From NCBI GenBank assembly GCA_007129655.1, contig SKVC01000023.1:1-39192 (forward strand): a DNA stretch of 39,192 bases, given 5' to 3'. Origin of the DNA: Thermoplasmata archaeon (GTDB taxonomy: Archaea; Thermoplasmatota; Thermoplasmata; Halarchaeoplasmatales; Halarchaeoplasmataceae). Numbering within the stretch: position 1 is the first letter of the stretch; the number at the start of each line of letters is the position of its first letter. Of this stretch, positions 12,881 through 35,745 are shown piece by piece. Under the pieces are notes generated by a model. It worked only from the letters and a program-made list of their open reading frames with translations, did no database searches and was not told the origin of the DNA. Made by a program: the position numbers and the translations under genes.

Positions 12881-14770
12881 TTATTCGCCGTAACCTATCT
12901 TCTTTACAGATTCTTTTATCTCGTCTAATACATCTGGATCTTCGATGGTCGAAGGCATTCTGTATTCCTTACCATCTGCGATATGCCTCATGGTTCCACG
13001 GAGTATTTTCCCGGATCTAGTCTTCGGTAAACGGTCAACAACTACAGCTTTTTTGAAAGAAGCTATTGGGCCGACTTCGTTTCTTACCATGCCTATCACA
13101 TCGGATATGATATCCTCGTGTGAACGTTCAGTACCTGATTTAAGAACCAGGAAGCCGATGGGGACTTCACCTTTAAGTTGATCTTCAACTCCCAGTACAG
13201 CACATTCGGCAACATCCGGATGTTTAGCCACAGCTTCTTCCATACTTCCTGTGGATAACCGATGGCCGGCTACATTTATGATATCATCTACTCTTCCCAT
13301 CACATAGATGTATCCGTCTTCATCTATGTATCCACCGTCTCCTGTAAAGTAAAAGCCTGGATATTGTGTCATGTACTCCTTTTCGAAGGCCTCTTCATCC
13401 TTCCATAAAGTGATAAATGTTCCCGGTGGCAGTGGTAACTTTACAGTTATAACACCATGTTCCCCCGGAGGCATCTCTTCTCCGCTGAAGGGGTCCAGAA
13501 TTCTTACATCCCATCCTGGAACCGCCTTCGTTGCAGAGCCCGGTTTGATAGGATACTGCGTCAATCCTCTGAAATTAGCGGCTATGGCCCACCCAGTTTC
13601 GGTCTGCCACCAATGGTCTATCACAGGTACTTTAAGTAAATCTTTTGCCCAGTGATATGTATCCGGATCCGTTCTTTCACCTGCTAAAAATAGTGTATCA
13701 AACTTGGAAAGGTCGTATTTTTCGAGATATTTACCTTCCGGATCCTCTCTTTTAACTGCACGTATTGCCGTTGGTGCAGTGAACAGCACTTTTACGTTAT
13801 GTTCTTCAATAACTCGCCAAAACTGGCCGGCATCCGGAGTACCCACGGGTTTTCCTTCGTACATGATGGTCGTTGCACCGGTGAGTAATGGCGCGTAAAC
13901 AATGTATGAGTGACCGACAACCCAACCTACATCGGAAGCAGCCCAATAAACGTCACCGGCTTGGATCCCGTATATCTTTTCCATGGTCCATCGTAGAGAA
14001 ACGGCGTGACCTCCGTTGTCACGTACCACTCCCTTGGGTTTACCGGTTGTTCCTGAGGTGTAGAGTATGTACAGAGGGTCGTTTGCATCTAATTCAAAAC
14101 ATTCTGTTTCTTCTGCCTTTGCTTCCAATTCATCCCAATCAAGCTCTCCATCGAATTGAGTTTTACCTTCAGGCCTTTGCTTCATCACTATCGTTTCTGG
14201 CTTATGTTCGGCCAGGTTGATAGCCTTATCAAGCAGTGGCTTGTATTCGATCACCTTCGTTCGCTCTATACCGCATGAAGCCGTAAGAATAACCTTGGGT
14301 TTGGCATCATCGATACGTATTGCCAGTTCTTTAGCTGCAAAACCACCGAACACTACAGAATGAACTGCGCCTATACGGGCACATGCTAGCATACCTATCA
14401 GTGCCTCTGGTATCATAGGCATATATATTATTACAGTATCTCCCTTCTCGACACCGAGACCACGCAGGAAACCTGCTGATTTTGATACTCTATCTTTCAA
14501 CTCTGAGTATGTATACTTCTCTATGGTGTCTGTCACAGGACTATCATAGATAAGTGCATCCTGGTCTCCTCTACCTTCCTCAATATGCCTATCGATGGCG
14601 TTGTAACATGTATTGATTTTACCGCCTTTGAACCAGCGATTGAATGGTTTGTTTGACTCATCTAAAACTGTATCCCATTTATCGTACCATTTTATCTCTT
14701 CAGCTGCTCTGCTCCAGAAACTCTCTGGGTCTTGTATCGATTCTTTAAATGCCTTTTCGTATTCATCCAT
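12881..14770 (-). CDS. prpE: Short-chain acyl-CoA synthetase, propionate--CoA ligase-like (AMP-forming)
   Basis: YTSGTTGKPKGV (AMP-binding P-loop). WVVGHSYIVYAPLL. DHWWQTETGW. DDIINVAGHRLSTG. PKTRSGKILR. The N-terminal region (NTCYNAIDRH..YDSPVT..ACARIGAVHSVVFGGFAAKELAIRIDDAKPKVILTAS) matches the PrpE/ACSS3 pattern better than Acs, from memory. A GAGGTG SD lies 8 nt upstream. Confidence 0.8.
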   Translation of the reverse strand: MDEYEKAFKESIQDPESFWSRAAEEIKWYDKWDTVLDESNKPFNRWFKGGKINTCYNAIDRHIEEGRGDQDALIYDSPVTDTIEKYTYSELKDRVSKSAGFLRGLGVEKGDTVIIYMPMIPEALIGMLACARIGAVHSVVFGGFAAKELAIRIDDAKPKVILTASCGIERTKVIEYKPLLDKAINLAEHKPETIVMKQRPEGKTQFDGELDWDELEAKAEETECFELDANDPLYILYTSGTTGKPKGVVRDNGGHAVSLRWTMEKIYGIQAGDVYWAASDVGWVVGHSYIVYAPLLTGATTIMYEGKPVGTPDAGQFWRVIEEHNVKVLFTAPTAIRAVKREDPEGKYLEKYDLSKFDTLFLAGERTDPDTYHWAKDLLKVPVIDHWWQTETGWAIAANFRGLTQYPIKPGSATKAVPGWDVRILDPFSGEEMPPGEHGVITVKLPLPPGTFITLWKDEEAFEKEYMTQYPGFYFTGDGGYIDEDGYIYVMGRVDDIINVAGHRLSTGSMEEAVAKHPDVAECAVLGVEDQLKGEVPIGFLVLKSGTERSHEDIISDVIGMVRNEVGPIASFKKAVVVDRLPKTRSGKILRGTMRHIADGKEYRMPSTIEDPDVLDEIKESVKKIGYGE

Positions 14771-14813
14771 TTATTATACACCTCTTAAATTTCATTTATA
14801 TTATCGTCGGGAA

Positions 14814-15233
14814 TTAACACTCTTCCTTTAAAGGGTTTGGACCGATTGTTTTTAGAGTACTTACAAATTCCGTGACTACATCTGCAAATTTTTGACCTTC
14901 GGAAGCTGAAATATACTCGAAACGCAACCGGTCGGGATCGATGTTGAAATCCGCAAGTAGTCTCTTTATAAGCATCATCTTTCGGTTTGTTTTGTAATTT
15001 CCTGACTGATAATGACAATCTCCGGGGTGACATCCTGCCACCAGGACGCCATCGATACCTTCCTTAAGGGCATCCAGTACGAATACTGGATCTACCCTTC
15101 CGGAGCACATCACTCTTATCGATCTTATATTATCAGGATATTTTAATCTCGAAGTTCCTGCAAGGTCCGCTCCTGCATAGGAACACCAGTTACACAAAAA
15201 TGCAACTACTGAAGGTTCAAATTCTTTACTCAT
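14814..15233 (-). CDS. mvhD: MvhD / FlpD-type [2Fe-2S] electron-transfer subunit, copy 1
   Basis: [50 protein letters not shown]. There is an 8-nt overlap with the upstream tandem hdrA. Confidence 0.9.
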   Translation of the reverse strand: MSKEFEPSVVAFLCNWCSYAGADLAGTSRLKYPDNIRSIRVMCSGRVDPVFVLDALKEGIDGVLVAGCHPGDCHYQSGNYKTNRKMMLIKRLLADFNIDPDRLRFEYISASEGQKFADVVTEFVSTLKTIGPNPLKEEC

Positions 15234-18200
15234 TTATAACACCTCTCGAACAAGTTCCAAGAGCTTTTATCATTGCCAATATTTGATTATCTTTGAATCC
15301 TTTTTGATCGATGGCTCCCGAGGGACATGCAGCTACACAAGTACCGCAGCCCTGACAAAGTCCTTCGGTTATCTCGGCGTGTGTCACTTCAACTCCGTCG
15401 ATTGTTTCCGTCAGTGATTCTATCGCATTATAGGGGCAGACAGATATGCAAGTCTTACAACCCGAACATCGATCATCATCCACAACTGCTACATTCGCTT
15501 CCGCTTCCATCTTCGGATGGGCTAATACCGTGGATGCCCGGGCAGCTGCTGCTTGAGCCTGATAGATGCATTCGTTGATGAATTTAGGAGAATGACAACT
15601 TCCTGCCAGGAACACTCCTGCAGTTGAGAAATCAACCGGTCGAAGCTTTACATGTGCTTCCAGGAAAAATCCATCTTGATTTAGAGGAACTTTCAACTGC
15701 TGTGCTACTTCAAAGGTGCCCTCCTCCGGATTCATACCGGTAGACAGAACTAAGTGATCTGCGTTTAGCTCGATCTCTTCCTGAAGCATAGGCTCCCAGA
15801 CCTTAGCTGTGATATTTTCATCGATTTTGATCTCAGGTTTCTTTTCCACATCATACTGCATGAAAATTACTCCATTCTCACGTGCCTCTTTGTAGTATCT
15901 TTCAAAGAAACCGTAGGTCATCATGTCCCGGTAGAGGATATAAACTTCCGCACGCGGATTGATATCCTTTATCTTCAAGGCATTCTTCAATGCCCCCATA
16001 CAGCATATGCGGGAACAGTAATTCCTATCTCCCTCTCTGGACTCCACGCATTGAATCATCACAAAGGTTTCCCCCTCTTCGATATCTCCTTCATTTAACT
16101 CTGAAAGCATCTCTTCCAGTTCCAATTGGGTAACGATCCTGGGATCTTTACCGTAACCGTAGGATGTGGGGGTGTGCTCTGAGCTTCCGGTGGTGACTAT
16201 TATGGCACCGGTGATTATTTCTTCATCATCCGAGAGCTTTATATTGTAATTACCCACATGACCGGATATTTCTTTAATTGTCGAGTCAAGTCTTAACTCA
16301 AGGTCCTCATGTTCTGATATGCGCTTTTCCATCTCGGCAAGTATCTTATCAAGATCCACATCTTCGAAGGCGAATTTTATCTTGTTCAGTTTTCCGCCTA
16401 ACTTATCTTCCTTTTCTACCAGTACCGTCTTGTAACCTTGATCCGCAAGAGATAGTGCCGTTGTCATCCCTGCGACGCCACCGCCTACTACTAGTGCTGA
16501 TTGCTCGATATCGATGGTTGTTTTCGGTATCTGTTCTAGCAATCTGGATTTGGCTACGGTCATAGATATCAATTCTTTGGCTTTTTCAGTCGCTCTATCT
16601 TTATCCGTATGCACCCAGGAGCAGTGTTCTCTTATATTAGCCATCTCCAAGAGATGTGGGTTCAATCCTGCTTCTGAAAGACTCTTCTTGAAGAGTGGTT
16701 CATGTGTTCTCGGAGTACACGCAGCAACTATGATTCTGTTCAACCTTTCATCCTTGATGATATCAACTATGCTCTTTTGGGTGTCTTCGGAGCATGTGTA
16801 AAGACTATCGGTTGCGTATTCTACATTATCTAAGGTATCTGCATATTCTACTACCTTACTCACATCTACATAATTACCAATATTGATGCCGCAATTACAT
16901 ACGAATACACCGATCCTCGGCTCTTCTTCGGAAACATCTCTTTCAGGGTACTCCGGGGCCGGTTCCACTAAGGTATCCTTTGAATCTCTCAATAAAGCGG
17001 CAGCTTGTGATGCTGCAGCCGAAGCCTGCATAACCGATTCTGGTATGGCTTGAGGTTCGACTATGCTTCCTGCCATGAATATCCCGGGTTTGACCAATGC
17101 CACAGGATCATTTGTACCTGATAAAGGGAAACCGAATTCGTTGACATCCAGCCCCAGATCGCTGAGCATCTTAGATCTGTCACCCGTCATGCAGAGACCG
17201 ATGGACAGTACCACCATATCAAAGGTATCTTCGTGAAGTTCGCCCTCCACATCTTCGTATCTTATGGTCAAATCTCCGCATTCTTTTTGGTATATCTCAG
17301 ATATCCTCGAACGTTCGTACTTGATTCCGTGTTCTCTTTTTGCCCTCTCTACATACCGGTCGAAATCCTTACCGAAGGTTCTCACATCTATGTAGAATAC
17401 AGTAGCATCTATGTCTTTCTCGTGCTCCTTGGCGATTACTGCTTCTTTGGTTGTGTACATACAGCACATGGAAGAGCAGAATTCTTGGTTTATGTTTCTG
17501 TCCCTCGAACCCACACACTGGACCCAGGCTATTTTTTTGGGATGTTTCTTGTCTCCCGGGCGTAATATTTTGCCTTCGTATGGTCCGGAAGCAGATAGGA
17601 TTCTCTCGAATTCCAGAGATGTGATCACATTCGGAAATTTACCGTATCCGAATTCTTTTTTGATCTTCGGGTCAAATGGCGCAGAACCTGTTGCCAGTAT
17701 GACCGCACCAACATCGAGAGCTATTTCTCTGTCCTCTTGTGAATGGTCTATGGATCCTGCTGTGCATGCCTTTTCACAAAGTCCACATTCGATGCAGCCT
17801 TTGTGATCCGACGTTCCTTCCTTATCTATCACATATGCATTTGGGATCGCCTGCGGATAATACTTGTAGATCGCTTTCCTCATAATGAGTCCTTGTTCGA
17901 AAGTATCGGGGATCTCTATGGGGCACACTTCAGCACAATCTCCGCAAGCCGTGCAAACATCCGGATCTATGTATCTTGCCTTCTGGTCAACTAATACCTT
18001 GAAGTTTCCTGCCTCGCCTTTTATATCTTTAACTTGAGCAAGTGTAAATATATCTATATTCGGATGCCGTGCGCAATCAACCAATTTAGGAGAAAGTATG
18101 CACATGGAACAATCGTTGGTGGGAAAGGTCTTGTCAAGCATCGCCATGACTCCACCTATAGCAGGTGATTTTTCAATTAAGTATACCTTGAATCCCATAT

Positions 18201-18309
18201 CCGCAAGGTCAAGTGCAGACTGTACACCTGCTATTCCTCCGCCAACTACGGCAACGGCACCGATGGTTTCATTCGCAGACATCGTGACCCTCCTTGAAAT
18301 ATCCTTCAT
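15226..18309 (-). CDS. hdrA: Tandem HdrA-type flavoprotein: an uninterrupted thioredoxin-reductase-like HdrA module with inserted ferredoxin (aa ~17-445) fused to a second, complete HdrA unit (aa ~463-1027)
   Basis: Module 1: [74 protein letters not shown]. Module 2: [14 protein letters not shown] (N-terminal Cys-cluster domain), [23 protein letters not shown], and a C-terminal 2x[4Fe-4S] ([24 protein letters not shown]). An AGGAGG SD sits 6 nt before the second ATG (M10, nt 18282), which is the more likely start. That start would reduce the overlap with the upstream gene to 14 nt. Confidence 0.85.
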   Translation of the reverse strand: [1027 protein letters not shown]

Positions 18310-18946
18310 CTATTGCTATCTCTCGTATGGCAAACATCAATTTTGGTATCTCCACACCCTGGGGACACTGTTCAAAACATCGAAAGTGGGTAGAACATAT
18401 TTCAACGAATTTATTAGCGTAAACCTTATCTTTCATACCAAGAAGGGAAGTTTTGATCACTTTACGTGGAGAATACAATGAATCTAAGTCTCTTTCCGGA
18501 CAACCGGCGGTACAGGTTCCACATGAAAAACAATTGTAGATCTCTTTCCCGGATTCTCCTTCTGCTAATTCGTATTTGAAAGAGGGATCCATACCTTTCT
18601 TTATCTCGTCACCGCACTCGTCCTCTTCTTTCTCATCCTTCAAACGTTCGTTTCGTATCTGATTCATCAAACCCTTTACATTCACTTCCTGAGGACACTT
18701 ATCCAAACATCTGTAATGGGATGAACATACCCATAGAAACTCGGATGATAGAACTTCTTCACGGAGACCCAGGAGTGCCTTTCTAATTATAGTTCTCGCG
18801 TTCCAGTGGTCATCTACGTCCATCTCGGGACACCTTGTTGTGCAGCTTCCACATGCAAAACAGTTCAGTATACCTTCTCCACCTTCCTGTTCCGCTATTT
18901 CGTATTTGAAGTTAACATCTAGTTTCTTGGTATCGATGGAATCCAT
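18269..18946 (-). CDS. Internally duplicated HdrC-like iron-sulfur protein (two HdrC-type repeats)
   Basis: Repeat 1: NCFACGSCTTRCPE..VCSSHYRCLDKCPQ. Repeat 2: NCFSCGTCTAGCPE..ICSTHFRCFEQCPQ. Each repeat carries CxxCxxCxxxCP plus Cx5Cx3CP. The gene starts immediately after the upstream stop (0-nt gap). Confidence 0.7.
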   Translation of the reverse strand: MDSIDTKKLDVNFKYEIAEQEGGEGILNCFACGSCTTRCPEMDVDDHWNARTIIRKALLGLREEVLSSEFLWVCSSHYRCLDKCPQEVNVKGLMNQIRNERLKDEKEEDECGDEIKKGMDPSFKYELAEGESGKEIYNCFSCGTCTAGCPERDLDSLYSPRKVIKTSLLGMKDKVYANKFVEICSTHFRCFEQCPQGVEIPKLMFAIREIAIDEGYFKEGHDVCE

Positions 18947-20044
18947 CTATTTTTCCCCCACATCCAGGAATTCGTCTTCCCTGTACACGATCATTGGCAT
19001 CTCTTCTTCGGGATCTCTTCCAGGTAAGTATTCGAATTCTGCCTGTGCATTCTCGGCTATGGCCGTTATGATATCCATCAAAGGGATATCGGAAGGACAC
19101 GCTTGCTCGCAAAGACCGCACTCTACACAGGAAAGTATCATGTGGTTGAATCTTGTTACATGGAACAACAGGGAATCCGTAGGGGTCTTGTATGCACCTT
19201 TGCTCTTGGCCTTGGCCATGTATTTACTCGCCTCTACATCGAAAACATCACTTTCGAAAAGGCATTCACGACAGTAACATATCGGACAGGCTTTCATACA
19301 GTTGTGACAGTTTACACATGTATCGAAGAATTCAAGTAACTTATCGACACCGGCGATATCCGAATGTTCATCAATGAAAGCTTTTCTTGCCTCATCCCTC
19401 TTATTTCTTATTTCCAGAACGGCTTTTTCCCTGTCCTCCTCGGTGGCAACTTCACTCAATTTCATATCTGAAACCAGTTCCTGTCCATTTTCTGTTCTAG
19501 TATCCAGCAATATTGCTTTATCTGTATCGGCACCGAAGATACCGATTATCATGTCTGCAGTCTCCGGCACAGGATCTTTACAGTTAAGACATGCCGTCCT
19601 CATATTTTCTTCACTTTCTCCTTTCAGTACGACTTCCGTGGGATCATCGTCACCCGGATAGTTAGAATACGTCTTCATGGGGAACGTTCCGGGACAGTCA
19701 ACACCTATAAGCACGATATTTTCCAGGTCGGCCTGCTTCAATTTTAACAATTCAGTCAAAGCTCTTATTTCGCATGCACGAAGAACTACAGCCAAAGGCT
19801 TATCAGAACCTTTTATTTTCGTTAACCTGGATACCATAGCACCGGTTGAAACCGGAAGTAAAGGAGCGAATACGTTGGTATTGAGCTTTTCCGGGTCAGA
19901 TATCATAGTTGGGAACGCGGATTTACCCGAGGGTGTTTCCTGCATTGCCAAAACGGCATCGACTTTACCGCTTTCAAGCAACTGCTTTAAAAAACTGTTC
20001 ACGGTCTTGGGAACATCATCTTCTATCTTTAATTCGTATATCAT
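18947..20044 (-). CDS. FrhB/FdhB- or AsrA-like iron-sulfur protein (365 aa); family assignment tentative
   Basis: The N-terminal half has VVLRACEIRALTELL..IGVDCPGT..CLNCKDPVPETADMIIGIFG, which is reminiscent of the FrhB/FdhB fold. The C-terminal half has CVNCHNCMKACPICYCRECLF (the CPxCxC motif typical of AsrA/sulfhydrogenase-beta-type dicluster domains) and CVECGLCEQACP. Confidence 0.5.
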   Translation of the reverse strand: MIYELKIEDDVPKTVNSFLKQLLESGKVDAVLAMQETPSGKSAFPTMISDPEKLNTNVFAPLLPVSTGAMVSRLTKIKGSDKPLAVVLRACEIRALTELLKLKQADLENIVLIGVDCPGTFPMKTYSNYPGDDDPTEVVLKGESEENMRTACLNCKDPVPETADMIIGIFGADTDKAILLDTRTENGQELVSDMKLSEVATEEDREKAVLEIRNKRDEARKAFIDEHSDIAGVDKLLEFFDTCVNCHNCMKACPICYCRECLFESDVFDVEASKYMAKAKSKGAYKTPTDSLLFHVTRFNHMILSCVECGLCEQACPSDIPLMDIITAIAENAQAEFEYLPGRDPEEEMPMIVYREDEFLDVGEK

Positions 20045-20054
20045 GGTAATACCT

Positions 20055-20501
20055 CTAAATATTCCATTTCTCCTTCATGGGATTCGGGCCGAGTTTCTTT
20101 GTTTCGTTCACTATTTCCTTTACCGTATCGGCAAATTTCTGGCCTTCCGAAGCCGATATCCAACGTAACCATATCCTATCGGGTTCCATTCCAAGAGTGG
20201 TAAGGATGTTCTTCAGCAGAACCATCTTTCTTCTTGCTTTGTAATTCCCATTAATATAATGACAGTCGCCTGGGTGACAGCCACCTATGAGTACGGCATC
20301 GGCACCTTCTAACAATGCTCTGTTCACATATACTGAATCAACCGAACCGGAGCACATCACTCTGATCACTCTTATGTTCGGAGGATACTGTATGCGGCTA
20401 GTACCTGCTAGATCCGCTCCTGCATAGGAACACCAGTTGCAGAGGAACCCGACTATCTTGGGTTCGAAATCTTCATTTTTTTTCTCTTTTTCTTCGCTCA
20501 T
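20055..20501 (-). CDS. mvhD: MvhD / FlpD-type [2Fe-2S] electron-transfer subunit, copy 2
   Basis: [50 protein letters not shown]. About 60 % identical by eye to copy 1. The shared DNA string gctcctgcataggaacaccagtt occurs in both copies. Confidence 0.9.
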
Positions 20502-20512
20502 TTTATCGCTCC

Positions 20513-25615: not shown

Positions 25616-26510
25616 CCTCCTTTTTTATCTCGTTGATGAAATCGTCTACTTTTGATGGTAATACGGGGTAATATTCATCATCCACCACTACTACAGGGCC
25701 TAAAGCACAGGCACCAAGGCAGTTAACGGCTTCGAGAGAAAATAAACCATCTTCGGTAGTTTCACCCGGTTTGATCCTTAATTTACGTTCGATCTCATCC
25801 AGCACCCTGGGACTTCCTCTGACATGACAGGCGGTACCCATGCAAACTTTGATGGTATGTTTTCCACGTGGTTCTAAAGAAAATGATGTGTAAAAAGTAA
25901 CAACATGATATACTTGTGAAAACGGTATCCCCAATTCCTGTGATACATATCTTAGAATATCTTTGGGTAGATACCGGTACTCTTCATTGATGGCCTGCAT
26001 TATCGGTATCAGTGATTCGTTTTCCCTTCCATGTTTCTTAAAAAGTTCGTCAACCTTATCGATGTTCTTTTGTTCAATATCCTGCCTTGCATCACGTGGT
26101 TCAGGTATCTGAGGTTTGTACCTAACCAAGCAGTTCTCAACGCAAAGGCCACAACCATTACATAACTCTTCGTCGATGGACCTAGCACGCTTGTTTATGG
26201 TAGCTGTGAAATCACCGGGCTCGCCTTCAAGTTTTATCAGATCTGAATTGGTGATTATCTCTATATTCGGGTGTCTACCGGTGGCTACGAGTTTGGGAGC
26301 TAAAATACACATGGAACAATCATTAGTTGGAAAGGTCTTGTCTAATTGAGTCATCCTTCCGGCAATGGATAAACCTTTATCAACGAGGTAAACCTTGAAA
26401 CCGGAATCCGCAAGGTCCAATGAAGATTGAATGCCGGATATTCCTCCGCCAACAACCATGACCGAGCCTTTTACTGATTTATTTTCTATTATTGTTTCTT
26501 CAGATGCCAT
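25608..26510 (-). CDS. Fusion protein: N-terminal part of an HdrA-type FAD module (aa ~15-127) + NuoE/HydC-like thioredoxin-like [2Fe-2S] domain (aa ~160-300)
   Basis: HdrA-N fragment: [64 protein letters not shown]. NuoE part: [51 protein letters not shown] SD lies 8 nt upstream. The ATG is 1 nt after the hdrA stop. Confidence 0.85.
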   Translation of the reverse strand: [300 protein letters not shown]

Positions 26511-26511
26511 C

Positions 26512-28478: not shown

Positions 28479-29354
28479 TCAGTCCTCCTCCTTGGAACCG
28501 AGCTTATCAACCGGGCTTTTGTTTAAGTGTAAACCTAGTGCCTCTGGTTCTTTACCCATGGCCAGACCGAGTAACTGTATATAATAAATAACCGGTATAT
28601 TCAACGAAGCGCCGACTGTTTGTCCCGCGCTGTCCTGTTTTGTGTCGAACATCCGCTGTCCCCATGGACACATGGTGGTCATCCCGTCGAATCCATGGTT
28701 TTGTACGGCTTCCAGCTTCTGTCCGGTCTTGGTAAGGGCGGATTCCTGTTCATTCAATAGAATGTGGGCACCGCAGCAGTCCAATTTTTCGTTGTAGTAA
28801 TCACTCTCAGCACCGATTGTTTTTAGCAAAGTCTCAAGCTTCTGTGGATTCTCCGAATCGTCAGGTCTGGGAATATCGTTGGGACGGATAAGATGACAGC
28901 CGTAGTGTGCGGCTATGTTGAGCCCTTCTAAGGGCTCTTTGATATGCTCTTTGATTACTTCTGTACCGATTTCATCATGTAGAAGATCTAAAAGATGGTA
29001 ATGCTTTACCTTGCCTTTGTACTCCAACCCTTCTTCTTTAAGATAAGAATTTACCTTTTCCTTTAAAGTCGGATTTTTATCTAATACATCCTTAGCTTCT
29101 GAGATCGCTTGGTGACAATATGGACAAGGCGCCAAGATATCAAGTCCCTCCTTCTCGAAGAGAGCGATATTTCTAGCTGATAAGTACATAGTTAAAGACA
29201 GGTTGATGTGCCTCAATGGTGCACCACAGCAGGCCGGCCCCTCGATATCAACTAACTCCGTACCAAGCTCCGGTAATACTTCTCTGATGGCCAGTTCGTA
29301 TGCATACTGTTCCGTTGGTATCAAACATCCAAGGTATAATCCGATTTTTTCCAT
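28479..29354 (-). CDS. hdrB: Heterodisulfide reductase subunit B (two CCG domains, the second one degenerate)
   Basis: CCG domain 1 has C10, C42-C43 (ACCGAP) and C77-x2-C80 (CPYC). CCG domain 2 has C153, C193-C194 (DCCGAH) and C229-x2-G232 (CPWG, nt 28659-28670, tgt cca tgg gga). Confidence 0.85.
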   Translation of the reverse strand: MEKIGLYLGCLIPTEQYAYELAIREVLPELGTELVDIEGPACCGAPLRHINLSLTMYLSARNIALFEKEGLDILAPCPYCHQAISEAKDVLDKNPTLKEKVNSYLKEEGLEYKGKVKHYHLLDLLHDEIGTEVIKEHIKEPLEGLNIAAHYGCHLIRPNDIPRPDDSENPQKLETLLKTIGAESDYYNEKLDCCGAHILLNEQESALTKTGQKLEAVQNHGFDGMTTMCPWGQRMFDTKQDSAGQTVGASLNIPVIYYIQLLGLAMGKEPEALGLHLNKSPVDKLGSKEED

Positions 29355-29361: not shown

Positions 29362-29892
29362 TCACCTCAGCGTCTCCGTAGCAGCCTTCATCAGCACCTG
29401 CTGTAATTTAGGCATCTCTTCGGGTCCTTTTATTTTCGGTAGCCCCATATCATCTCTCGTTACGGCGTTATTTTCTCTATCCACCACTTCTTTCGGGGAT
29501 TGAATAAATCCCGTTCCTAAAACAGCTTGTAGCATATTCGAATAACCTGAATCAATCTGTTTACCGGATGATACAGCGATGTTCTTCACGGCAAAGATAA
29601 CATCTACTGGAGCCAGATCTTGAGGACATCTTTCTTTACATTTTAAACAGGTAACGCATGTCCATATCTCACCGGAGTTCAACAACTCGTCGATGAATCC
29701 TGATTTGGAGAGGGCCATCACCTTGTGCGGCTCCAGTTCGGTCAATATGAAGGCTTCGCAACCAGACGTGCATTTACCGCATTGGTAACAGTCGTGGGGG
29801 ATGTCCTCCTGCAAACCTTTGATTATGTCGTTTATTTTCTTTTGTGCTTCGCCTTCCGGCTCGGCCATAGATGTAAGGTCGATTATGCTCAT
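29362..29892 (-). CDS. hdrC: Heterodisulfide reductase subunit C
   Basis: CYQCGKCTSGCE and CVTCLKCKERCP (2x[4Fe-4S]-type motifs). Length 176 aa. It lies 7 nt upstream of hdrB. Confidence 0.85.
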   Translation of the reverse strand: MSIIDLTSMAEPEGEAQKKINDIIKGLQEDIPHDCYQCGKCTSGCEAFILTELEPHKVMALSKSGFIDELLNSGEIWTCVTCLKCKERCPQDLAPVDVIFAVKNIAVSSGKQIDSGYSNMLQAVLGTGFIQSPKEVVDRENNAVTRDDMGLPKIKGPEEMPKLQQVLMKAATETLR

Positions 29893-29933: not shown

Positions 29934-30761
29934 CTATTCCCCTTTAAAGAGGGGTTTTCTCTTTTCGATAAAGGCATCCATACCTTCTTTTTGATCTTCA
30001 GTGTCGAAGAGTTCGGCGAACATCTCTGCCTCTACTTCCAAACCTTCGTAAAGGGGTAGATCGATACCTTCTTTGATAGCTACCTTTGCATTCTCGATTG
30101 CTACAGGGCCTTTTTCAGCTATCTTCTGAGCCATCTCCATGGCTGCCTTGAATACCGGTTCGTTATCTTGGATCGGTCGGCCCTTTTCATCTTTTACCAT
30201 TTCTCCGCTATCGTCCTCTTGATAACCTTTTACTAAATGCTGAACCAGACCGATATTGTAGGCTTCTTCAGCGCTGATGATGTCTCCTGTAAATATAAGC
30301 TCCTTGGCTTTACCGGGACCTATACAGCGAGCCAATCGTTGAGTACCGCCGAATCCGGGTATAACTCCCAGGTTGACCTCGGGCTGCCCGAACTTCGCTG
30401 CCTTCGAGGCTATACGTATATCACAGGCTAGTGCTACTTCGGTTCCTCCGCCTAGGGCGAATCCGTTAACTGCTGCGATAACGGGTACGTGTAGTTCCTC
30501 TAAACGACTTAAAACATTCTGGCCCAACTCTGTAAATTCCCAGGCCTCATCAAAGGACATATCCTTCATCTCTTTGATATCGGCTCCGGCAACGAAGGCT
30601 CTTCCCTTACCGGTAACTATCACCGCACGTAAGTTTTCGTCATCTTCGAGTTCTTCAAGAGCAGAATCTAATTCCATGAGTAATTCTGTACATAATACGT
30701 TCATGGGTGGATTGTTCATGTAAATAGTCGCTATACCGTTTTCCATCTCCATATCTATCAT
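29934..30761 (-). CDS. crt: Enoyl-CoA hydratase (crotonase family)
   Basis: VIVTGKGRAFVAGADIKEM. AAVNGFALGGGTEVALACDIRIAS. PEVNLGVIPGFGGTQRL. There is a ~20-aa acidic insertion (KGYQEDDSGEMVKDEKGRPIQDNE) relative to the short clostridial Crt as I recall it. Confidence 0.85.
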   Translation of the reverse strand: MIDMEMENGIATIYMNNPPMNVLCTELLMELDSALEELEDDENLRAVIVTGKGRAFVAGADIKEMKDMSFDEAWEFTELGQNVLSRLEELHVPVIAAVNGFALGGGTEVALACDIRIASKAAKFGQPEVNLGVIPGFGGTQRLARCIGPGKAKELIFTGDIISAEEAYNIGLVQHLVKGYQEDDSGEMVKDEKGRPIQDNEPVFKAAMEMAQKIAEKGPVAIENAKVAIKEGIDLPLYEGLEVEAEMFAELFDTEDQKEGMDAFIEKRKPLFKGE

Positions 30762-30769: not shown

Positions 30770-31624
30770 CTATTTCGAGTAGTCGTAAAAGCCTTTACCT
30801 GTCTTTCTTCCCAGGTAACCGGCCCTTACCATGGTCTTCAGTAGCGGGCAGGGTCTGTACTTCGAATCGTTGAATTCGTTGTAAAGTACTTCCATTATAT
30901 GTAGAACCGTATCGAGACCTATGAGATCTCCCAGAGCTAGTGGTCCCATTGGGTGATTCATACCGAGCTTCATCACCTGATCGATGTTTTCGGCCTCGGC
31001 AACACCGTTCTGGAGGCAGTAAACCGCTTCGTTTATCATGGGTATAAGAACTCTGTTGGAAACGAACCCCGGAGAATCGTTGACTTCTACGGGTATCTTT
31101 CCCATCTCTTCGGACATCTTGATTATTATGTCGGTGGTCTCATCGGATGTTCGCAGACCACGTATCACTTCCACCAGTTTCATCAACGGCACCGGATTCA
31201 TGAAGTGCATACCGATGAACTTTTCCGGACGCTCGGTGAAGGAAGCCATCTTCGTGATCGGTATAGTAGATGTGTTCGATGCCAGTATTGTATCCGGTCC
31301 GCATAATTCGTCCAGTTCTGAGAATACCTCTTCCTTTATGTTAACATCTTCGATCACCGCTTCGATTACCAGGTCGCAGTCTTTGAGGTCCTCCATGTCC
31401 ACTGTTCCTGTTATACGTGATAAAGTTTCTTCCTTGTCTTCTTCGGACATCTTACCCTTTTCCACACCCTTGTTTAGGAATTTTTCAATTCCTTTCATGC
31501 CGTTATCTACAAATTCCTGCTTGATATCACGCATAACAACTTCATATCCCGTTTGGGCTGCTACTTGTGCTATACCGTGTCCCATGGTTCCTGCGCCTAC
31601 TACTCCTATTTTTTTTATTTCCAT
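30770..31624 (-). CDS. hbd: 3-hydroxyacyl/3-hydroxybutyryl-CoA dehydrogenase
   Basis: [18 protein letters not shown] (NAD Rossmann fold). [34 protein letters not shown]-terminal [11 protein letters not shown]. Confidence 0.9.
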
Positions 31625-31628: not shown

Positions 31629-32807
31629 TCACATCTCTACTATCATAGCTACTGCGTTTCCACCGCCGAGACATAGGGTAGCCAATCCTCTGTGTGCACC
31701 CCGGTCTTTCATAGCGTAAAGCATAGTGGTTAACACTCTTGTACCGCTGCATCCTATGGGGTGTCCCAAGGCAACTGCGCCTCCGTGGACGTTGATTTTG
31801 TCTTCGGGTATATCGAACTCCTTTTGGATTGCCAATGATGCAGAGGCAAAGGCCTCGTTGTGCTCTATAATATCTATATCGTCGATGGTTAGGTCGTTTC
31901 TCTTCATCAGTTCCTTCATGGCAGGAACCGGTGCTTTCATCACATGTTCCGGTATCACACCTGCCGTGTTATAGTCAACTATCTTAGCCATAGGCTCCAA
32001 TCCCATGGAATCTGCCTTTTCATCACTCATGACTACTACAGCCGATGCCCCGTCGGATATCTGAGACGCATTACCAGCGGTTACCAATCCGTCTTTTTTG
32101 AAGACCGGTCTTAGCTTTCCAAGGGTTTCCAACGTTGTATCCGGCCGTACACCTTCGTCTTTTTTGAACATTATCGGTTCGCCCTTTCTTTGTGGTACTT
32201 CGATCGGGAATATTTCTTCATCAAATTTCCCCTCCTCTGCTGCAATAGATGCCAACCGGTGACTTCTGAGTGCGAATTTATCTACATCTTCTCGTGTTAG
32301 ATCGTATAGTTCCGCTATTATCTCTCCGGTCAATCCCATATGAAAATCATTGTATACATCCCACAGGCCGTCGTTGACCATGGCATCGATTATCTCTCCG
32401 TTACCCAATCGGTAACCGTTCCTCGCCTTATCCAGAACGTAGGGCGCTCTGGTCATATTCTCCATGCCCCCTGCGACGATGGCATCGTACTCTCCAACCT
32501 TTATGCTATTTGCCGCAAACATGACGGTCTTGAGTCCGGAACCACATACCTTATTCACCGTGGTCGCTCCGGCTTCAACCGGTATTTCCGCACCGATGGC
32601 CGCCTGTCTCGCTGGATTCTGTCCTAATCCTGCGGAGACTACATTACCCATCAATACTTCTTGAACATCCTCTTTGTTTATGCCTGCTCGCTTAACTGCT
32701 TCTTCGATAGCTAAACTTCCGAGTTTCGGTGCTGGAAAGCCGGAAAGTGTGCCGTTGAATCTGCCTATCGCCGTTCTAGCGGCGGATATTATAACTGCTT
32801 CTTTCAT
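31629..32807 (-). CDS. Acetyl-CoA C-acetyltransferase (thiolase II)
   Basis: [10 protein letters not shown] (nucleophilic Cys). [32 protein letters not shown]. An AGGAGAG SD lies upstream. Confidence 0.9.
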
Positions 32808-32883: not shown

Positions 32884-33840
32884 CTAAGCCATTTTTTCTT
32901 TGATAGCTGCAGTGAGCTTAGGAAGTACCTCGTAAAGGTCTCCTACCAATCCATAGTCTGCGGATTTAAATATCAACGCTTCAGGATCCTTGTTTATAGC
33001 TACGATGATGTCCGAATCCCGCATACCGGCGATGTGCTGTATCTGGCCCGAGATACCTATGGCGATATACACCTTGGGTTTTACCTTATGGCCTGAGAGG
33101 CCTATCCAGTGATCCTCAGTAAACCATTTCATATCCGCTGAAAGCGGTCTTGAACATCCCAGGGTTTCTCCGGGTAGTAGTCTTGCCAACTCTTCGGCCA
33201 TCTTAGTATCTTCCTTATTTTTGAAACCTCTACCGCAGGAAACTATGGAAGTTGCCGCTTCGACGTTGACTCCTTCCGACTCCATCACCTGTATGTTGGT
33301 TATCTCTGAAGGGAAAGTTTTGTAATCTACACTTTCTTTTGTTACCTCCCCGGTTCTTGAGCTATCTGCAGGTAGAGGATCGTAGAGTTTAGAAGGTATA
33401 GTCATGATATGAGGCTTGCCGGTGAATTGCTCAACAGCGATGGCATTACCGCTGTAAACTACACGTTCCGTGGTCAACTCACCGTCTTTAAAGTATATAT
33501 CCGTGCATCCGGTAACGCAACCGGTGTTAAGCATCGCCGCCAGTCTGGGAGCTAGCTCGTTTCCATCCTTGTTGGAACCTATCATGATAGTTTCCGAGCC
33601 TAGCTTTTCCGCTATATTAGCGATCATCTGTGTGTATTCCTCAACCTTGAAGTTTTTCAGATCAGTTTCGGCAACGAATACCTTGTCCGCACCGTGCTGT
33701 ATGTATTCATCCGCTTCGTCTTCGCCTATCAATACAACTGTGACTTCCTTACCCTGTTCATCAGCTAGTTCTCTTCCCTTTGCCAACATCTCTAAGGTAA
33801 GGTTTTTTTCGTTAGAATATATCAATACCATCTTTATCAC
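32884..33840 (-). CDS. etfA: Electron transfer flavoprotein alpha subunit
   Basis: Typical EtfA C-terminal FAD domain (VSCGRGF..LGCSRPL..W..GLSGHKVKPKVYIAIGISGQIQHIAGM..IVAINKDPEA.IF..ADYGLVGD). No N-terminal ferredoxin domain. The track start is a GTG at 33840. The ATG at 33831 lies 6 nt after a GGGGTG SD and is the likelier start. Confidence 0.9.
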   Translation of the reverse strand: MIKMVLIYSNEKNLTLEMLAKGRELADEQGKEVTVVLIGEDEADEYIQHGADKVFVAETDLKNFKVEEYTQMIANIAEKLGSETIMIGSNKDGNELAPRLAAMLNTGCVTGCTDIYFKDGELTTERVVYSGNAIAVEQFTGKPHIMTIPSKLYDPLPADSSRTGEVTKESVDYKTFPSEITNIQVMESEGVNVEAATSIVSCGRGFKNKEDTKMAEELARLLPGETLGCSRPLSADMKWFTEDHWIGLSGHKVKPKVYIAIGISGQIQHIAGMRDSDIIVAINKDPEALIFKSADYGLVGDLYEVLPKLTAAIKEKMA

Positions 33841-34604
33841 CCCAGAGCTCCCGATTTAGCAAGATTGTCAACAAGCTCTTTGATGCCTTCGTCGATATCA
33901 TCTTTGTAGATGACGTTCTTTCTCTCCATGGCTACACCCTTTATATCTGATATCTTCGTTCCTGCTTCTACCTCAGCTTCAAGAGAGGACGGGTCTATGG
34001 TCTCTATGGGCTTGTTAGCCGCACCGAGTATCTCCATCAAGCTGGGTAATCTCGGTTCGTTGATCTCCTTTGTAACTGTTAGTAAAACCGGATATGGCGA
34101 TTCAACGGTTACCTTTTTACCACTAAGATCCCTATCTGCTGTGAGCTTATCTGCCTCAGCATCTACATTTTTAGCATAGGTGATCTGCGGTATATCGAGT
34201 TTCTGAGCTACACGGGGCCCCATCTGTCCCGAGAAAAGATCTATCGAGGCTTCTCCGCATAAAACCATATCGTACTCCATACCGTTGATAACGGCGGCGA
34301 GTAAGTTGGAAACCACGTTGTAATCTCTGGTATCGTCCAGAGGGATGATCTTAGCTTCGTCGGCACCCATGGCCAGCAATTCTTTTATGTATTCCCTGGC
34401 CTCCGAAGGCCCTACGCTGACTACGGTAACCTTACCGCCGAGTTTTTCCTTTATCTTTACAGCCTCTTCGACTGCGTTCTTATCTATATCACTTATCTTC
34501 TTGTCGATACCCTGAAGGATCGGTTTGTTCGTCTTCGGGTCTACTTTTATTTGAGAAACGTCCAGTACTTCTTTTGCACACACTACAATATTCATGATCA
34601 ACAC
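33837..34604 (-). CDS. etfB: Electron transfer flavoprotein beta subunit
   Basis: MNIVVCAKEVLDVSQIKVD..VTVVSVGP..LAMGADEAKII..VLCGEASID, the typical EtfB pattern. The track start is a GTG at 34604. The ATG at 34595 (MNIVVC) lies 6 nt after a GAGGTG SD and is the likelier start. Confidence 0.9.
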   Translation of the reverse strand: MLIMNIVVCAKEVLDVSQIKVDPKTNKPILQGIDKKISDIDKNAVEEAVKIKEKLGGKVTVVSVGPSEAREYIKELLAMGADEAKIIPLDDTRDYNVVSNLLAAVINGMEYDMVLCGEASIDLFSGQMGPRVAQKLDIPQITYAKNVDAEADKLTADRDLSGKKVTVESPYPVLLTVTKEINEPRLPSLMEILGAANKPIETIDPSSLEAEVEAGTKISDIKGVAMERKNVIYKDDIDEGIKELVDNLAKSGALG

Positions 34605-34605
34605 C

Positions 34606-35745
34606 TCAGCCTAGAAGACTCTTTGCGATAACCATCCTCTGGGCCTCGGAGGTACCTTCGTATATCTCCGTGATCTTCGCATCTCTGAAGAGACGTTCGA
34701 TGGTGTATTCCTTTGTATAACCATATCCACCGTGGATCTGCACACCTTCGAGAGCTGCTTTAACAGCTGCTTCCGAAGCGAATAACTTGGCCATGGCGGC
34801 TTCCTTGGAGAATCTTCCGCCTTGGTCCTTTGCGAAGGCCGCCTTATGAAGCAGTAGCCTAGATGCTTCAACGCTTGTCGCCATATCCGCTATCTTCCAT
34901 TGGATAGCCTGGAACTTGCTTATAGGTCTGCCGAACTGCTGCCTTTGCTGCGAATATTCGATACTTTCCTCTAAAGCTCGCTGTGCGATTCCTACCGCCT
35001 GGGCTGCTATTCCTATTCTACCACCGTCGAGTGTACCCAGTGCTATCTTGAATCCTTGGCCTTCCTCTCCCAGCAGGTTTTCCTTCGGTACTCGCATATC
35101 TTCGAAGATCAATTCCGAAGTGAGTGAAGCGTGTATTCCCATCTTTTCGAATATACTTCCCACTTCGAATCCCTCGGTATCTGATTCAACGATGAATGCG
35201 CTTATACCCTTGTAACCGGCGGGTTTGTCCGTTACCGCGAACACGATATGTATTCCTGCTTCGCTACCACTGGTGATGAACATCTTGGAGCCGTTGATCA
35301 CGTAATGATCTCCATCTAGTACTGCCGTGGTCTCCATTGCTCCCAGATCCGTTCCTGCGTTGGCTTCGGTCCCGGAAAATGCACCTATATGCTCTCCCTT
35401 GGCTAGAAGAGGCAAATATTTCTTCTTCTGTTCTTCCGTTCCATACTTCATTATAGGATCGCTGACCAGTGAGTTGTGCACCGAAGTGATCACCCCTGTC
35501 GAAGCACACTTCTTTGATATCTCTTCGATAACTATAGCGTAGCTAATTGTATCTAGACCGGCTCCACCGTATTCCGTAGGTATCAATATACCGAGCAATC
35601 CAAGTTTTGCCATCTTCTTCAATATATCGTGCGGGTACTCTTCCTTTTCATCCAGTTCAGCGGCAACCGGTTCGATCTCCTTCTCAGCGAAATCTCTAAC
35701 CATGTTCCTTATCATCTTCTGATTATCATTCAATTCGAAGTCCAT
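34606..35745 (-). CDS. bcd: Short-chain (butyryl-CoA-type) acyl-CoA dehydrogenase
   Basis: FSGTEANAGTDLGAM. FITSG. GFKIALGTLDGGRIGIAAQAVG. QFGRPISKFQAIQ. IHGGYGYTKEY. IYEGTSEAQRMVIA (catalytic Glu context). Length 379 aa. Confidence 0.9.
   Translation of the reverse strand: MDFELNDNQKMIRNMVRDFAEKEIEPVAAELDEKEEYPHDILKKMAKLGLLGILIPTEYGGAGLDTISYAIVIEEISKKCASTGVITSVHNSLVSDPIMKYGTEEQKKKYLPLLAKGEHIGAFSGTEANAGTDLGAMETTAVLDGDHYVINGSKMFITSGSEAGIHIVFAVTDKPAGYKGISAFIVESDTEGFEVGSIFEKMGIHASLTSELIFEDMRVPKENLLGEEGQGFKIALGTLDGGRIGIAAQAVGIAQRALEESIEYSQQRQQFGRPISKFQAIQWKIADMATSVEASRLLLHKAAFAKDQGGRFSKEAAMAKLFASEAAVKAALEGVQIHGGYGYTKEYTIERLFRDAKITEIYEGTSEAQRMVIAKSLLG

Follow-up and report, generated by a model that had tools for sequence, protein, structure and literature searches.

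The subject of this work is a gene array on the minus strand of contig SKVC01000023.1 (assembly GCA_007129655.1, Thermoplasmata archaeon), whose 39,192 analysed nucleotides (nt) are called here the window. In the six-frame list of open reading frames (ORFs), 18 consecutive minus-strand ORFs run from 35745 to 12881 and place a complete short-chain beta-oxidation set (Acs, Bcd, EtfBA, Crt, Hbd and thiolase) around a soluble Mvh/MvhD/HdrABC machine, in an operon-like arrangement. A sequence-only reading of the same DNA had named these genes, had described 18 co-directional genes with junctions of 11 nt or less save for gaps of 76, 41 and 43 nt, and had placed a convergent MvhG/MvhA hydrogenase opposite the prpE-like gene. 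Every gene identity was upheld by Pfam and NCBIfam, the number and spacing of the genes matched the ORF list exactly, and the plus-strand mvhG-mvhA-hycI genes stop 1 nt from the stop of acs. The array, from its first gene to its last, and the hydrogenase genes facing it are the following.

34606 to 35745, minus strand: Bcd/AcrC-like short-chain acyl-CoA dehydrogenase, opening the array, with all three Acyl-CoA_dh domains
33837 to 34604, minus strand: EtfB (Pfam ETF)
32884 to 33840, minus strand: EtfA (Pfam ETF and ETF_alpha), without an N-terminal ferredoxin domain
31629 to 32807, minus strand: acetyl-CoA acetyltransferase (thiolase, thl), with Thiolase_N and Thiolase_C
30770 to 31624, minus strand: NAD-dependent 3-hydroxyacyl-CoA dehydrogenase (Hbd), with 3HCDH_N and 3HCDH
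29934 to 30761, minus strand: enoyl-CoA hydratase (Crt), with ECH_1
29362 to 29892, minus strand: HdrC, matching the HdrC-like TIGR03290 under its cutoff, with two CxxCxxCxxxC motifs at residues 35 and 79
28479 to 29354, minus strand: HdrB variant with two CCG domains, nine of the ten CCG cysteines and CPWG at residue 232
26512 to 28476, minus strand: canonical full-length HdrA (g9), aligning end to end with 5odc_A and 8rvu (E 1e-216 to 1e-217)
25608 to 26510, minus strand: g10, NuoE/HydC/BfuC joined to the N-terminal third of a split HdrA (domain searches, cysteine mapping)
23753 to 25615, minus strand: g11, NuoF of HydB/BfuB type (Pfam, full-length PDB matches)
20513 to 23752, minus strand: g12, NuoG'-HdrA-HdrA fusion of 1079 residues (Pfam/NCBIfam, PDB matches, cysteine mapping)
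20055 to 20501, minus strand: MvhD 1 (Pfam FlpD, 9.8e-54; VhuD/HdrA2 C-terminal match)
18947 to 20044, minus strand: g14, FdhB/FrhB-like flavin/iron-sulfur (FeS) subunit (weak FrhB_FdhB_N and FrhB_FdhB_C matches)
18269 to 18946, minus strand: g15, doubled HdrC-like FeS protein (TIGR03290 matched twice)
15226 to 18309, minus strand: g16, BamE-like HdrA-HdrA fusion of 1027 residues, predicted pseudo-heterodimer (domain searches, cysteine mapping)
14814 to 15233, minus strand: MvhD 2 (Pfam FlpD, 3e-55)
12881 to 14770, minus strand: AMP-forming short-chain acyl-CoA synthetase (Acs/PrpE-like), with ACAS_N, AMP-binding and AMP-binding_C
12424 to 12879, plus strand: hydrogenase maturation protease of HycI type (Pfam HycI)
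10970 to 12427, plus strand: [NiFe] hydrogenase large subunit MvhA of group 3c (Mvh/Vhu) type (motifs, PDB, NCBIfam VhuA)
9988 to 10968, plus strand: [NiFe] hydrogenase small subunit, MvhG/VhuG-like (Oxidored_q6; NCBIfam VhuG, 210 bits)

From bcd to acs, the first nine junctions are a gap of 1 nt, an overlap of 4 nt and gaps of 76, 4, 8, 41, 7, 2 and 1 nt, while the last eight are an overlap of 8 nt, gaps of 0, 11, 10 and 0 nt, overlaps of 41 and 8 nt and a gap of 43 nt. The three larger gaps lie between etfA and thl (76 nt), crt and hdrC (41 nt) and the second mvhD and acs (43 nt), and the 41-nt overlap of g15 with g16 shrinks to 14 nt with the start annotated on the public contig. The array is no assembly artefact, since the same DNA is found on that contig, from metagenome-assembled genome (MAG) GCA_019594065.1, where the array is identical, and as fragments in four other samples. 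No membrane-helix-like hydrophobic segment was detected with 19-residue windows in the 21 proteins of the array and the hydrogenase genes, the few windows just above 1.6 all lying within known soluble folds; Rfam, tRNA and tandem-repeat scans gave nothing relevant to the array.

As regards the beta-oxidation enzymes, the best NCBIfam match of the bcd product is the acryloyl-CoA reductase AcrC (543 bits, under its cutoff), and bcd orthologues with 89-95% identity occur in three related loci, L171, L172 and L173. The gene order bcd-etfB-etfA is that of the clostridial Bcd-EtfAB system, and the nearest solved homologues of EtfB are bifurcating (5ol2_B, 6fah_B and 4kpu_B; E 1e-34 to 3e-31, 124-107 bits). 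The acs product scores above the acetate-CoA ligase subfamily cutoff and lies near PrpE; its AMP-forming type suggests acid activation. The MvhA motifs L1 (RICGVCPVAHH) and L2 (AYDPCFACATH) match the MvhA signatures ICGxCxxxH and AYDPCxxCATH quoted in PMC6085437, and its best PDB matches are 7t2r_D (6e-120) and the MvhA 5odc_F (3e-111). Group 3c large subunit, MvhG and MvhD are all present in the window, and the hydrogenase is indicated as the partner of MvhD 2 by locus L094, where mvhD-mvhG-mvhA-hycI follow g16 in the same direction.

The array consists of two layers, a conserved frame and a seven-gene middle block, g10-g16. The frame, bcd-etfBA-thl-hbd-crt-hdrCBA-...-mvhD-acs facing hycI-mvhAG, recurs in related Thermoplasmata contigs and is conserved within a subclade, as the following loci show.

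L086 (sibling MAG GCA_019594055.1, 90% identity): acyl-CoA dehydrogenase gene on the opposite strand, then thl-hbd-crt-hdrCBA-g10-g11-g12
L171 (EtfA 80%): window layout repeated, from the divergent AMMECR1 gene through hdrA
L172 (EtfA 72%, HdrB 88%): minimal array, bcd-etfBA-thl-hbd-crt-hdrC-hdrB-hdrA-mvhD-acs facing hycI-mvhA, without g10-g16
L092/L093 (g15 82%): crt-hdrCBA-X-mvhD-g14-g15-g16-mvhD-acs facing mvhA-mvhG
L094 (g15 75%): etfA 50 nt upstream of hdrC; co-directional hydrogenase genes after g16
L090, L118 and L161 (lower identity): nearby, two enoyl-CoA hydratase (ECH) genes and a carboxylase gene, bcd, and etfAB, respectively

The arrangement mvhD-acs facing mvhAG is also found in L092/L093 and L172, where the acs orthologues in the same position are 74% and 88% identical. 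In L092, the nearest relative apart from the sibling, a gene for a carboxylate (acetate/succinate) transporter of GPR1/FUN34/YaaH type (18684-19292) lies downstream of the hydrogenase and is followed by a second acs-like gene (19498-20658), which hints at uptake and activation of short-chain acids. At the other end of the array, a 96-nt divergent region (35746-35841) separates bcd from an AMMECR1-amidohydrolase pair; this layout is kept in L171 (AMMECR1 83%, amidohydrolase 70% identity to the window), and the TTTAAA and AAAGTTTTATC boxes within it are possible archaeal promoters for both directions.

HdrB carries a mark of this subclade. The protein aligns full-length with HdrB of 9sfi and 5odc, but its second CCG motif ends in Gly232 where cysteine is expected, giving CPWG instead of CPWC and 9/10 cysteines. 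Two complete CCG motifs (10 cysteines, for two non-cubane clusters) are one of the defining features of a reductase of the coenzyme M-coenzyme B heterodisulfide (CoM-S-S-CoB), a feature which this HdrB lacks. In an alignment of 29 relatives, 23 have CPWC, and Gly is confined to the window with its duplicates, to L086 and to L092/L093; HdrB of L171 and L172 is also CPWG. The CPWG loci are exactly those with crt directly upstream of hdrC (L086, L092/L093, L171, L172 and the window). This circumstantial but specific correlation points to a different job for the CPWG HdrB from that of the HdrB of the broader clade. No description was found of such a conserved frame of beta-oxidation, Hdr and Mvh genes marked by an HdrB variant of its own.

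The second layer concerns HdrA. The sequence-only reading had counted five HdrA-type modules against one HdrB, and had taken the NuoEF(G') genes for a third, separate enzyme family. The count was right, but one module is split over g10 and g12 and the five make up three functional units; the separate family had to be given up, since cysteine mapping places NuoEF(G') inside an HdrA. For this mapping, the cysteines of all HdrA modules were referred to the canonical g9, whose Cys192/195 correspond to Cys194/197 of 5odc. Residues 3-651 of g9 align with residues 5-647 of 5odc_A, all cluster cysteines being conserved, and the protein carries the N-terminal domain cysteines, the inserted ferredoxin, the cluster of the thioredoxin reductase (TrxR) domain and the C-terminal ferredoxin. 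Residues 11-132 of g10 correspond to HdrA residues 138-259, and g10 holds the GxGxxG motif for flavin adenine dinucleotide (FAD), C65/C68 (equivalent to Cys194/197 of 5odc) and, from the inserted ferredoxin, the first [4Fe-4S] motif (C117-C127); a NuoE domain follows, residues 154-295 matching 2Fe-2S_thioredx with C223, C228, C264 and C268 invariant, as is characteristic of BfuC. In g12, residues 1 to about 190 form an FeS module like NuoG', the HydA N-terminus or BfuA, in which residues 1-184 show Fer2_4, two Fer4 and matches to HoxU and to the FeFe group A6 N-terminus, that is, a short BfuA. HdrA resumes from residues ~193-224 of g12 with the second inserted-ferredoxin motif (C228-C243) and the TrxR part, and a second HdrA follows. 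The domains of the four modules other than g9 are distributed as follows.

g10 plus the first part of g12: N-terminal domain absent, Cys197 present, inserted ferredoxin split, C-terminal ferredoxin absent
g12, second part (residues 515-1079): N-terminal domain and C-terminal ferredoxin present, Cys197 and inserted ferredoxin absent
g16, first half (residues 1 to ~440): Cys197 and inserted ferredoxin present, N-terminal domain and C-terminal ferredoxin absent
g16, second half (residues ~465-1027): N-terminal domain and C-terminal ferredoxin present, Cys197 and inserted ferredoxin absent

The five modules are therefore best read as one canonical HdrA and two predicted pseudo-heterodimers with complementary domain losses, each with a single MvhD docking domain (the C-terminal ferredoxin), which agrees with the presence of two mvhD genes. 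Such complementary loss marks the self-heterodimeric fused HdrA proteins described from anaerobic methanotrophic archaea (ANME) and Moorella (PMC9012536); compared with these proteins (HdrA3/4 type, Moorella HdrA), the module order is reversed in the window. Moreover, NuoE, NuoF and NuoG' separate the two cluster motifs of a single ferredoxin domain, so that the HdrA concerned is encoded by two genes; on the mapping given above, the two parts must reassemble around the inserted module.

The inserted module itself is a HydBC/Bfu-type NADH-ferredoxin module with predicted NAD(H)- and ferredoxin-dependent bifurcating activity. The g11 protein combines an N-terminal [2Fe-2S] thioredoxin-like domain with a flavin mononucleotide (FMN)/NADH site, a cluster of N3 type and, at the C-terminus, two [4Fe-4S] clusters, which is the full BfuB domain set (2Fe-2S_thioredx at 21-101, Complex1_51K, NADH_4Fe-4S and two Fer4 at 566-617, with cluster motifs at residues 572 and 602) and agrees with the family definition in PMC9304861. 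Its full-length best PDB matches are all bifurcating (7t2r_B of the A. mobile NiFe-HydABCSL, 3e-234; 8a6t_B; 7q4v_B), and T. kivui HydB is among its best solved homologues. With the Bfu enzymes (HydABC type, including 7T2R) the window shares the BfuB set, the BfuC [2Fe-2S] domain and the short BfuA; in fact, 7T2R subunits are the best PDB match for both g11 and MvhA. Unlike those enzymes, BfuC and BfuA are covalently fused to two HdrA fragments, and the hydrogenase would be reached via HdrA/MvhD and not directly via BfuA.

The block g10-g16, comprising the first double HdrA, MvhD, the FdhB-like protein, the doubled HdrC and the second double HdrA, represents the archaeal counterpart of the bacterial HdrABC/HdrL cluster, with a Bfu module in place of an NfnB-like domain, and it is inserted into the frame. 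The bacterial cluster, Sfum_0819-0824 of S. fumaroxidans, has been detected in proteomes and is uncharacterised; its HdrL is an HdrA with an NAD(P)H-binding insert. Both have hdrABC, a large HdrA-type protein, MvhD and an FdhB-like FeS protein, whereas the window has NuoE, NuoF and NuoG' for the NfnB-like insert, two genes around a separate NuoF, and the doubled HdrC and second HdrA-HdrA in addition. A direct comparison within the archaea is offered by L092 and L102, where a single ORF of 1502-1508 residues occupies the position of g10-g12. In the 1502-residue protein of L092, residues 1-166 match g10 (59%) and residues 645-1502 match g12 residues 224-1079 (74%), and between these parts, in both loci, lies a Fer4_20 plus Pyr_redox_2 (NfnB/GltD-like) domain. 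The Bfu insertion point in the window is thus the NfnB-like insertion point in the relatives, Pfam finding no NfnB-like domain in the window, where NuoE/F/G' occupy that site; both types of insert occur within the same archaeal lineage. HdrA-NfnB fusions are also known from ANME-1 (HdrA9-11; PMC9012536).

Regarding the remaining proteins of the block, the PDB matches of g14 are FdhB subunits of Fdh-Hdr supercomplexes (9t1s_M, 8rvu_E and 7bkb_E; E 6e-38 to 1e-33), and no FdhA partner for it is found within the window. Metagenome relatives of g15 were found with a four-sequence alignment, g15 alone as a query giving none. In that alignment the g15 cysteines are invariant, each half carrying CxxCxxCxxxC and CxxxxxCxxxC. 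In each half a His close to the second motif (H77, H187) is likewise invariant, and the pattern is nearer to the 4Fe/3Fe ferredoxin domains of SdhB/GlpC type than to the window HdrC, with its two full CxxCxxCxxxC. Loci L106 and L168 hold a compact cluster of a Pyr_redox protein, MvhD, a doubled HdrC (68-71% identical to g15), MvhG and MvhA; since no HdrA is present there, the doubled HdrC can also partner the hydrogenase directly.

The split module is widespread. Over 100 clusters of sequences with at least 54% identity belong to the g10 fusion family, and a survey of species-representative genomes gave the unit g10-g11-g12-mvhD in Thermoplasmata, Altiarchaeales, Spirochaetia, Acidobacteriota, Desulfobacterota, Bacillota, Latescibacterota, Ignavibacteria and Dehalococcoidia. 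It adjoins mvhG-mvhA in nine loci (L010-L014, L016, L017, L024 and L025), and has hdrCB upstream in several others. The mvhGA-adjacent units come from archaea and from many bacteria (Acidobacteriota, Desulfobacterota, Bacillota, Latescibacterota, Melioribacter), often without HdrBC. The unsplit order [HdrA-HdrA][MvhD][NuoE][NuoF][NuoG'], which is the BamEFGHI arrangement, is found in Geobacter, Syntrophorhabdaceae and other loci (L051, L058, L060); BamEFGHI has the same parts as g16/g12, MvhD and g10-g12, permuted and fused in the window. A class II benzoyl-CoA reductase was considered on account of this Bam-like unsplit order and rejected, no BamB (tungsten aldehyde oxidoreductase), BamC or BamD, nor any gene of the aldehyde oxidoreductase family or HdrD-like gene, being present within the window. 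Possible intermediate forms are seen in four loci: in L080, the HdrA N-terminal fragment is directly followed by a match to g12 residues 80-1074, including part of the NuoG'-like region, with no NuoE/NuoF between, and in L046, L057 and L061 about 1.3 kb, probably an NfnB-type insert, separate this fragment from the g12-like remainder. No description of the split Bfu-HdrA form was found in a literature search that did not cover the HdrA(BC) review of Appel et al. (2021), nor did the search find any paper mentioning Bfu, HdrA and MvhD together; the Bfu survey in PMC9304861 lists no type with BfuC and BfuA fused to HdrA fragments. A Bfu module splitting HdrA at its ferredoxin domain is apparently an undescribed arrangement. 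The array thus combines known blocks (Mvh, HdrABC, HdrL-type pseudo-dimers, Bfu and Bcd/Etf) in two arrangements that were not found described.

The best matches of the array proteins are from uncultured Thermoplasmata, several homologues being named 'Thermoplasmata archaeon', and the nearest GTDB representative is the uncultured archaeon LFW-68_2, described as a protease-rich Thermoplasmata, a non-methanogenic peptide degrader which keeps hdr. Thermoplasmata orders basal to Methanomassiliicoccales have been reported as non-methanogenic while keeping hdr/mvh and bcd/etf beta-oxidation, and it has been suggested that Hdr acts in such organisms on an 'unknown heterodisulfide'. The sequence-only reading had noted no methanogenesis genes, and Pfam and NCBIfam found none among the proteins of the 39-kb window; the source archaeon is probably non-methanogenic. 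The sequence-only reading had also proposed that HdrBC is not a CoM-S-S-CoB reductase, which fits both the 9/10 cysteines and these non-methanogenic relatives, the substrate of HdrB being itself a matter of inference. Compared with MvhAGD-HdrABC of hydrogenotrophic methanogens (5ODC, 8RVU, 9SFI), the proteins g9, HdrC, HdrB, both MvhD, MvhG and MvhA are alike over their full length, and the two systems share the L1/L2 motifs of MvhA and, in HdrA, Cys197, the two ferredoxin domains and the cluster of the TrxR domain. Nevertheless, the window lacks the tenth HdrB CCG cysteine, has three HdrA units against one and sets them in a beta-oxidation context without methanogenesis genes, so that the likely acceptor is not CoM-S-S-CoB.

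A working mechanism can be proposed on the basis of the solved Mvh-Hdr complex, in which electrons pass from MvhD to the C-terminal ferredoxin of HdrA and bifurcate at FAD, leaving at high potential through the TrxR-domain cluster to HdrC/HdrB, and at low potential through the cluster of the N-terminal domain and Cys197 to the inserted ferredoxin domain and on to ferredoxin (PMC9012536). In the window, the HdrA flavins would form a hub reversibly joining H2/H+, ferredoxin, NAD(H) and a high-potential couple, each pseudo-dimer offering one complete electron path. The H2/H+ path would run from MvhAG through MvhD to the single C-terminal ferredoxin domain of each pseudo-dimer, with MvhD 2 and MvhAG supplying or removing H2. 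Ferredoxin would gain access at the inserted ferredoxin domain of g16, a free site, and at Bfu, whereas NAD(H) would enter through Bfu, which would be hard-wired to the low-potential arm of the split HdrA g10/g12 and handle both NAD(H) and ferredoxin. The high-potential couple would be served by HdrC/HdrB and, in the CPWG subclade, could be enoyl-CoA/acyl-CoA via Bcd-EtfAB, or a shuttling thiol, rather than CoM-S-S-CoB. Furthermore, a different hydride carrier, such as F420 or NAD(P)H, may be linked in by MvhD 1 together with the FdhB-like g14, and the doubled HdrC (g15) could join the high-potential exits with one another or with the only HdrB. Under the very low H2 pressures of sediments, high-potential acyl-CoA electrons and NADH from Hbd would merge with reduced ferredoxin to give H2 (confurcation), while at high H2 the system would run backwards; we infer both the transfer from Etf to Hdr and the direction of flow.

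This explanation, a beta-oxidation/Hdr/Mvh frame carrying an HdrL-type Bfu block, with the HdrA flavins as a reversible four-couple hub, is judged the best overall and is held with slightly more confidence than doubt. A soluble Bcd/EtfAB-HdrABC-MvhAGD super-complex, in which the HdrA flavin would have enoyl-CoA/acyl-CoA for its high-potential partner in place of CoM-S-S-CoB, is a tentative proposal of rather low probability; if it were true, the nine-cysteine HdrB would be an adaptation to an acyl-CoA/Etf partner. To our knowledge, no enzyme couples Bcd/Etf to Hdr. However, MetFV-HdrABC-MvhD of Moorella offers a precedent for HdrABC-MvhD serving a flavoenzyme, methylene-tetrahydrofolate and not a disulfide taking the role of the heterodisulfide, and Bam-Bfu a precedent for an HdrA module combined with Bfu (PMC9304861). 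The comparison with the syntrophic EtfAB:quinone oxidoreductase (membrane-bound, DUF224/HdrD-like) is also relevant, both cases having Etf beside a CCG-domain protein in a fatty-acid oxidation context. The proteins of the window are, in contrast, predicted to be soluble, and their CCG protein, an HdrB of two domains, comes with HdrC and HdrA, no membrane-anchored CCG-domain protein lying beside etfAB in the array.

Several observations weigh against the preferred explanation, and the genomic ones among them favour a less probable alternative, namely that these genes are mere neighbours. In that case the operon for beta-oxidation, the supercluster of Hdr genes and acs would be separate functional units; Hdr/Mvh/Bfu would be a general redox balancer coupling H2, NAD(H), ferredoxin and some small-molecule or protein disulfide at HdrB, Etf electrons would go elsewhere, and the genes would at most be co-regulated in a peptide/fatty-acid fermenter. 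In fact, the block together with hdrCBA is kept at ~55-70% identity in about 40 metagenome loci without beta-oxidation genes in view, the hdrCBA-X-mvhD-g14-g15-g16 core having unrelated visible flanks there (for example, a pst transporter and MazE in L088; a geranylgeranyl-reductase-like protein, PKD proteins and a transporter in L102). Moreover, bcd-etfBA is the least stable element of the frame: the hdr locus of the sibling L086 (90% identical) lacks it, and four EtfA homologues (71-74%) belong to a CoA-transferase-bcd-etfBA unit without hdr (L173-L176), the L174 copy coming from that same sibling MAG, GCA_019594055.1. In this unit, two CoA-transferase subunit genes and a small ORF precede bcd-etfBA, and the gene of an S8 peptidase of 1560-1616 residues adjoins it. 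The sample of L176 (DRR846329) holds the exact g10 sequence of the window, and the window organism may therefore have two bcd-etfBA copies. The gaps before thl (76 nt, with a TTTAAA box upstream of the gene), hdrC and acs are AT-rich with TATA-like boxes, and the array may therefore be several transcripts; the boxes were read by eye, which does not in itself define transcripts. The literature, too, has Hdr/Mvh of such Thermoplasmata acting on an unknown heterodisulfide. Against mere neighbourhood stand the recurrence of the frame at 70-90% identity in several genomes with differing arrangements, including the minimal L172; the HdrB substitution, exclusive to beta-oxidation-linked loci; and the acyl-CoA genes near more distant cores (L090, L118 and L161). 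The integrated electron route of the sequence-only reading is accordingly supported in part: synteny, which it had named as a check, shows the linkage again in L086, L092/L093, L094, L171 and L172, and the minimal array and the HdrB variant also speak for it, while the Hdr cores without beta-oxidation genes and the instability of bcd-etfBA speak against it.

Biochemical considerations also tell against the preferred explanation. Human non-bifurcating 1efv_B is close behind the bifurcating homologues of EtfB (5e-27, 99 bits), so that this Etf may be of either type, and the roles given to g14 (possibly F420) and g15 are guesses. From quoted potentials (crotonyl-CoA about -10 mV, ferredoxin about -500 mV, H2 -414 mV; PMC9304861 and another source), our own calculation indicates that confurcation to H2 needs about 0.5 Pa H2 or less; it would be feasible solely in H2-scavenged sediments, the reverse reaction being strongly exergonic. 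An AMP-forming Acs is, finally, an expensive activation for a catabolic butyrate oxidiser. AMP-forming acyl-CoA synthetases can also run in reverse with pyrophosphate in Syntrophus.

Upstream of mvhG, at a distance of 120 nt, lies a divergent dihydrolipoyl dehydrogenase (Lpd) gene (8527-9867, minus strand), whose product scores 460.7 bits against the NCBIfam equivalog cutoff of 408.8; a distant Pyr_redox homologue (~30% identity) stands ahead of mvhD-g15-mvhG-mvhA in the short loci L106 and L168. Lpd could link a dithiol pool to Hdr/Mvh, or simply belong to a 2-oxoacid dehydrogenase. Farther from the array, an ORF of 1523 residues (178-4749, plus strand) has only a weak MG2 (alpha-2-macroglobulin-like) domain, and one of 1233 residues (4820-8521, plus strand) contains a helix-hairpin-helix, multiple double-zinc-ribbon domains and C-terminal TPR repeats, and covers the lowest-GC stretch of the window (0.37-0.39), with strongly positive GC skew. 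Positions 1-114 hold a tandem repeat of period 12/24/48 nt with a CAACGGTAGGAT-like consensus (96% matches at period 48), which runs off the window start and is probably a coding repeat of a truncated upstream gene.

The Lpd gene supports another alternative, in which HdrBC acts on a dithiol bound to a protein or cofactor, such as dihydrolipoamide carried by a lipoate-binding protein (as in the sHdr of sulfur oxidisers), a CoA-disulfide or a DsrC/TusE-like protein, with Lpd as the link to NAD(H). This is improbable, although the Pyr_redox protein of L106 and L168 and the proposal of DsrC as a partner of HdrABC/HdrL in S. fumaroxidans agree with it: L092 has no Lpd beside mvhG and carries the YaaH-type transporter there, no lipoate-binding, DsrC or sulfur-transfer gene is present within the window, and a 2-oxoacid dehydrogenase or the glycine cleavage system would account for Lpd just as well. 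A methanogen-type H2:CoM-S-S-CoB oxidoreductase with extra Hdr paralogues, from an H2-dependent, methyl-reducing methanogen related to Methanomassiliicoccales, is very improbable and was rejected as the principal explanation, for although HdrA, HdrC, MvhD, MvhG and MvhA align full-length with the methanogen enzymes and Thermoplasmata is the class holding Methanomassiliicoccales, it is opposed by the incomplete HdrB motif, by Hdr NCBIfam scores all far under the equivalog cutoffs, by the beta-oxidation context and lack of methanogenesis genes in the window, and by the non-methanogenic peptide degraders among its relatives.

The disposal of the high-potential electrons of acyl-CoA dehydrogenation by anaerobes is a long-standing problem of syntrophy, for which the known bacterial answer is a membrane-bound Etf:quinone oxidoreductase combined with reverse electron transport. 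The conserved coupling, at gene level, of beta-oxidation to a soluble Hdr/Mvh system points to an alternative in abundant sediment archaea, the case for which is strengthened by the matching HdrB variant; the array thus suggests a membrane-free way to pass fatty-acid electrons to hydrogen. If the super-complex exists, short-chain acyl-CoA would be oxidised to H2 with co-oxidation of reduced ferredoxin and no membrane-bound reverse electron transport or, alternatively, energy would be conserved from H2-dependent enoyl-CoA reduction; the Bfu-split HdrA would chain FMN/FeS and FAD bifurcating centres through their low-potential arms, bringing NADH into the hub. Independently of this, the position of the split locates the NADH/ferredoxin wiring on HdrA, at the inserted ferredoxin domain of the low-potential arm, and bears on the electron path of Bam-type and HdrL-type complexes. 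Moreover, the split module often stands beside Mvh genes, and may be a common, unrecognised hydrogenase type linked to NADH and ferredoxin.

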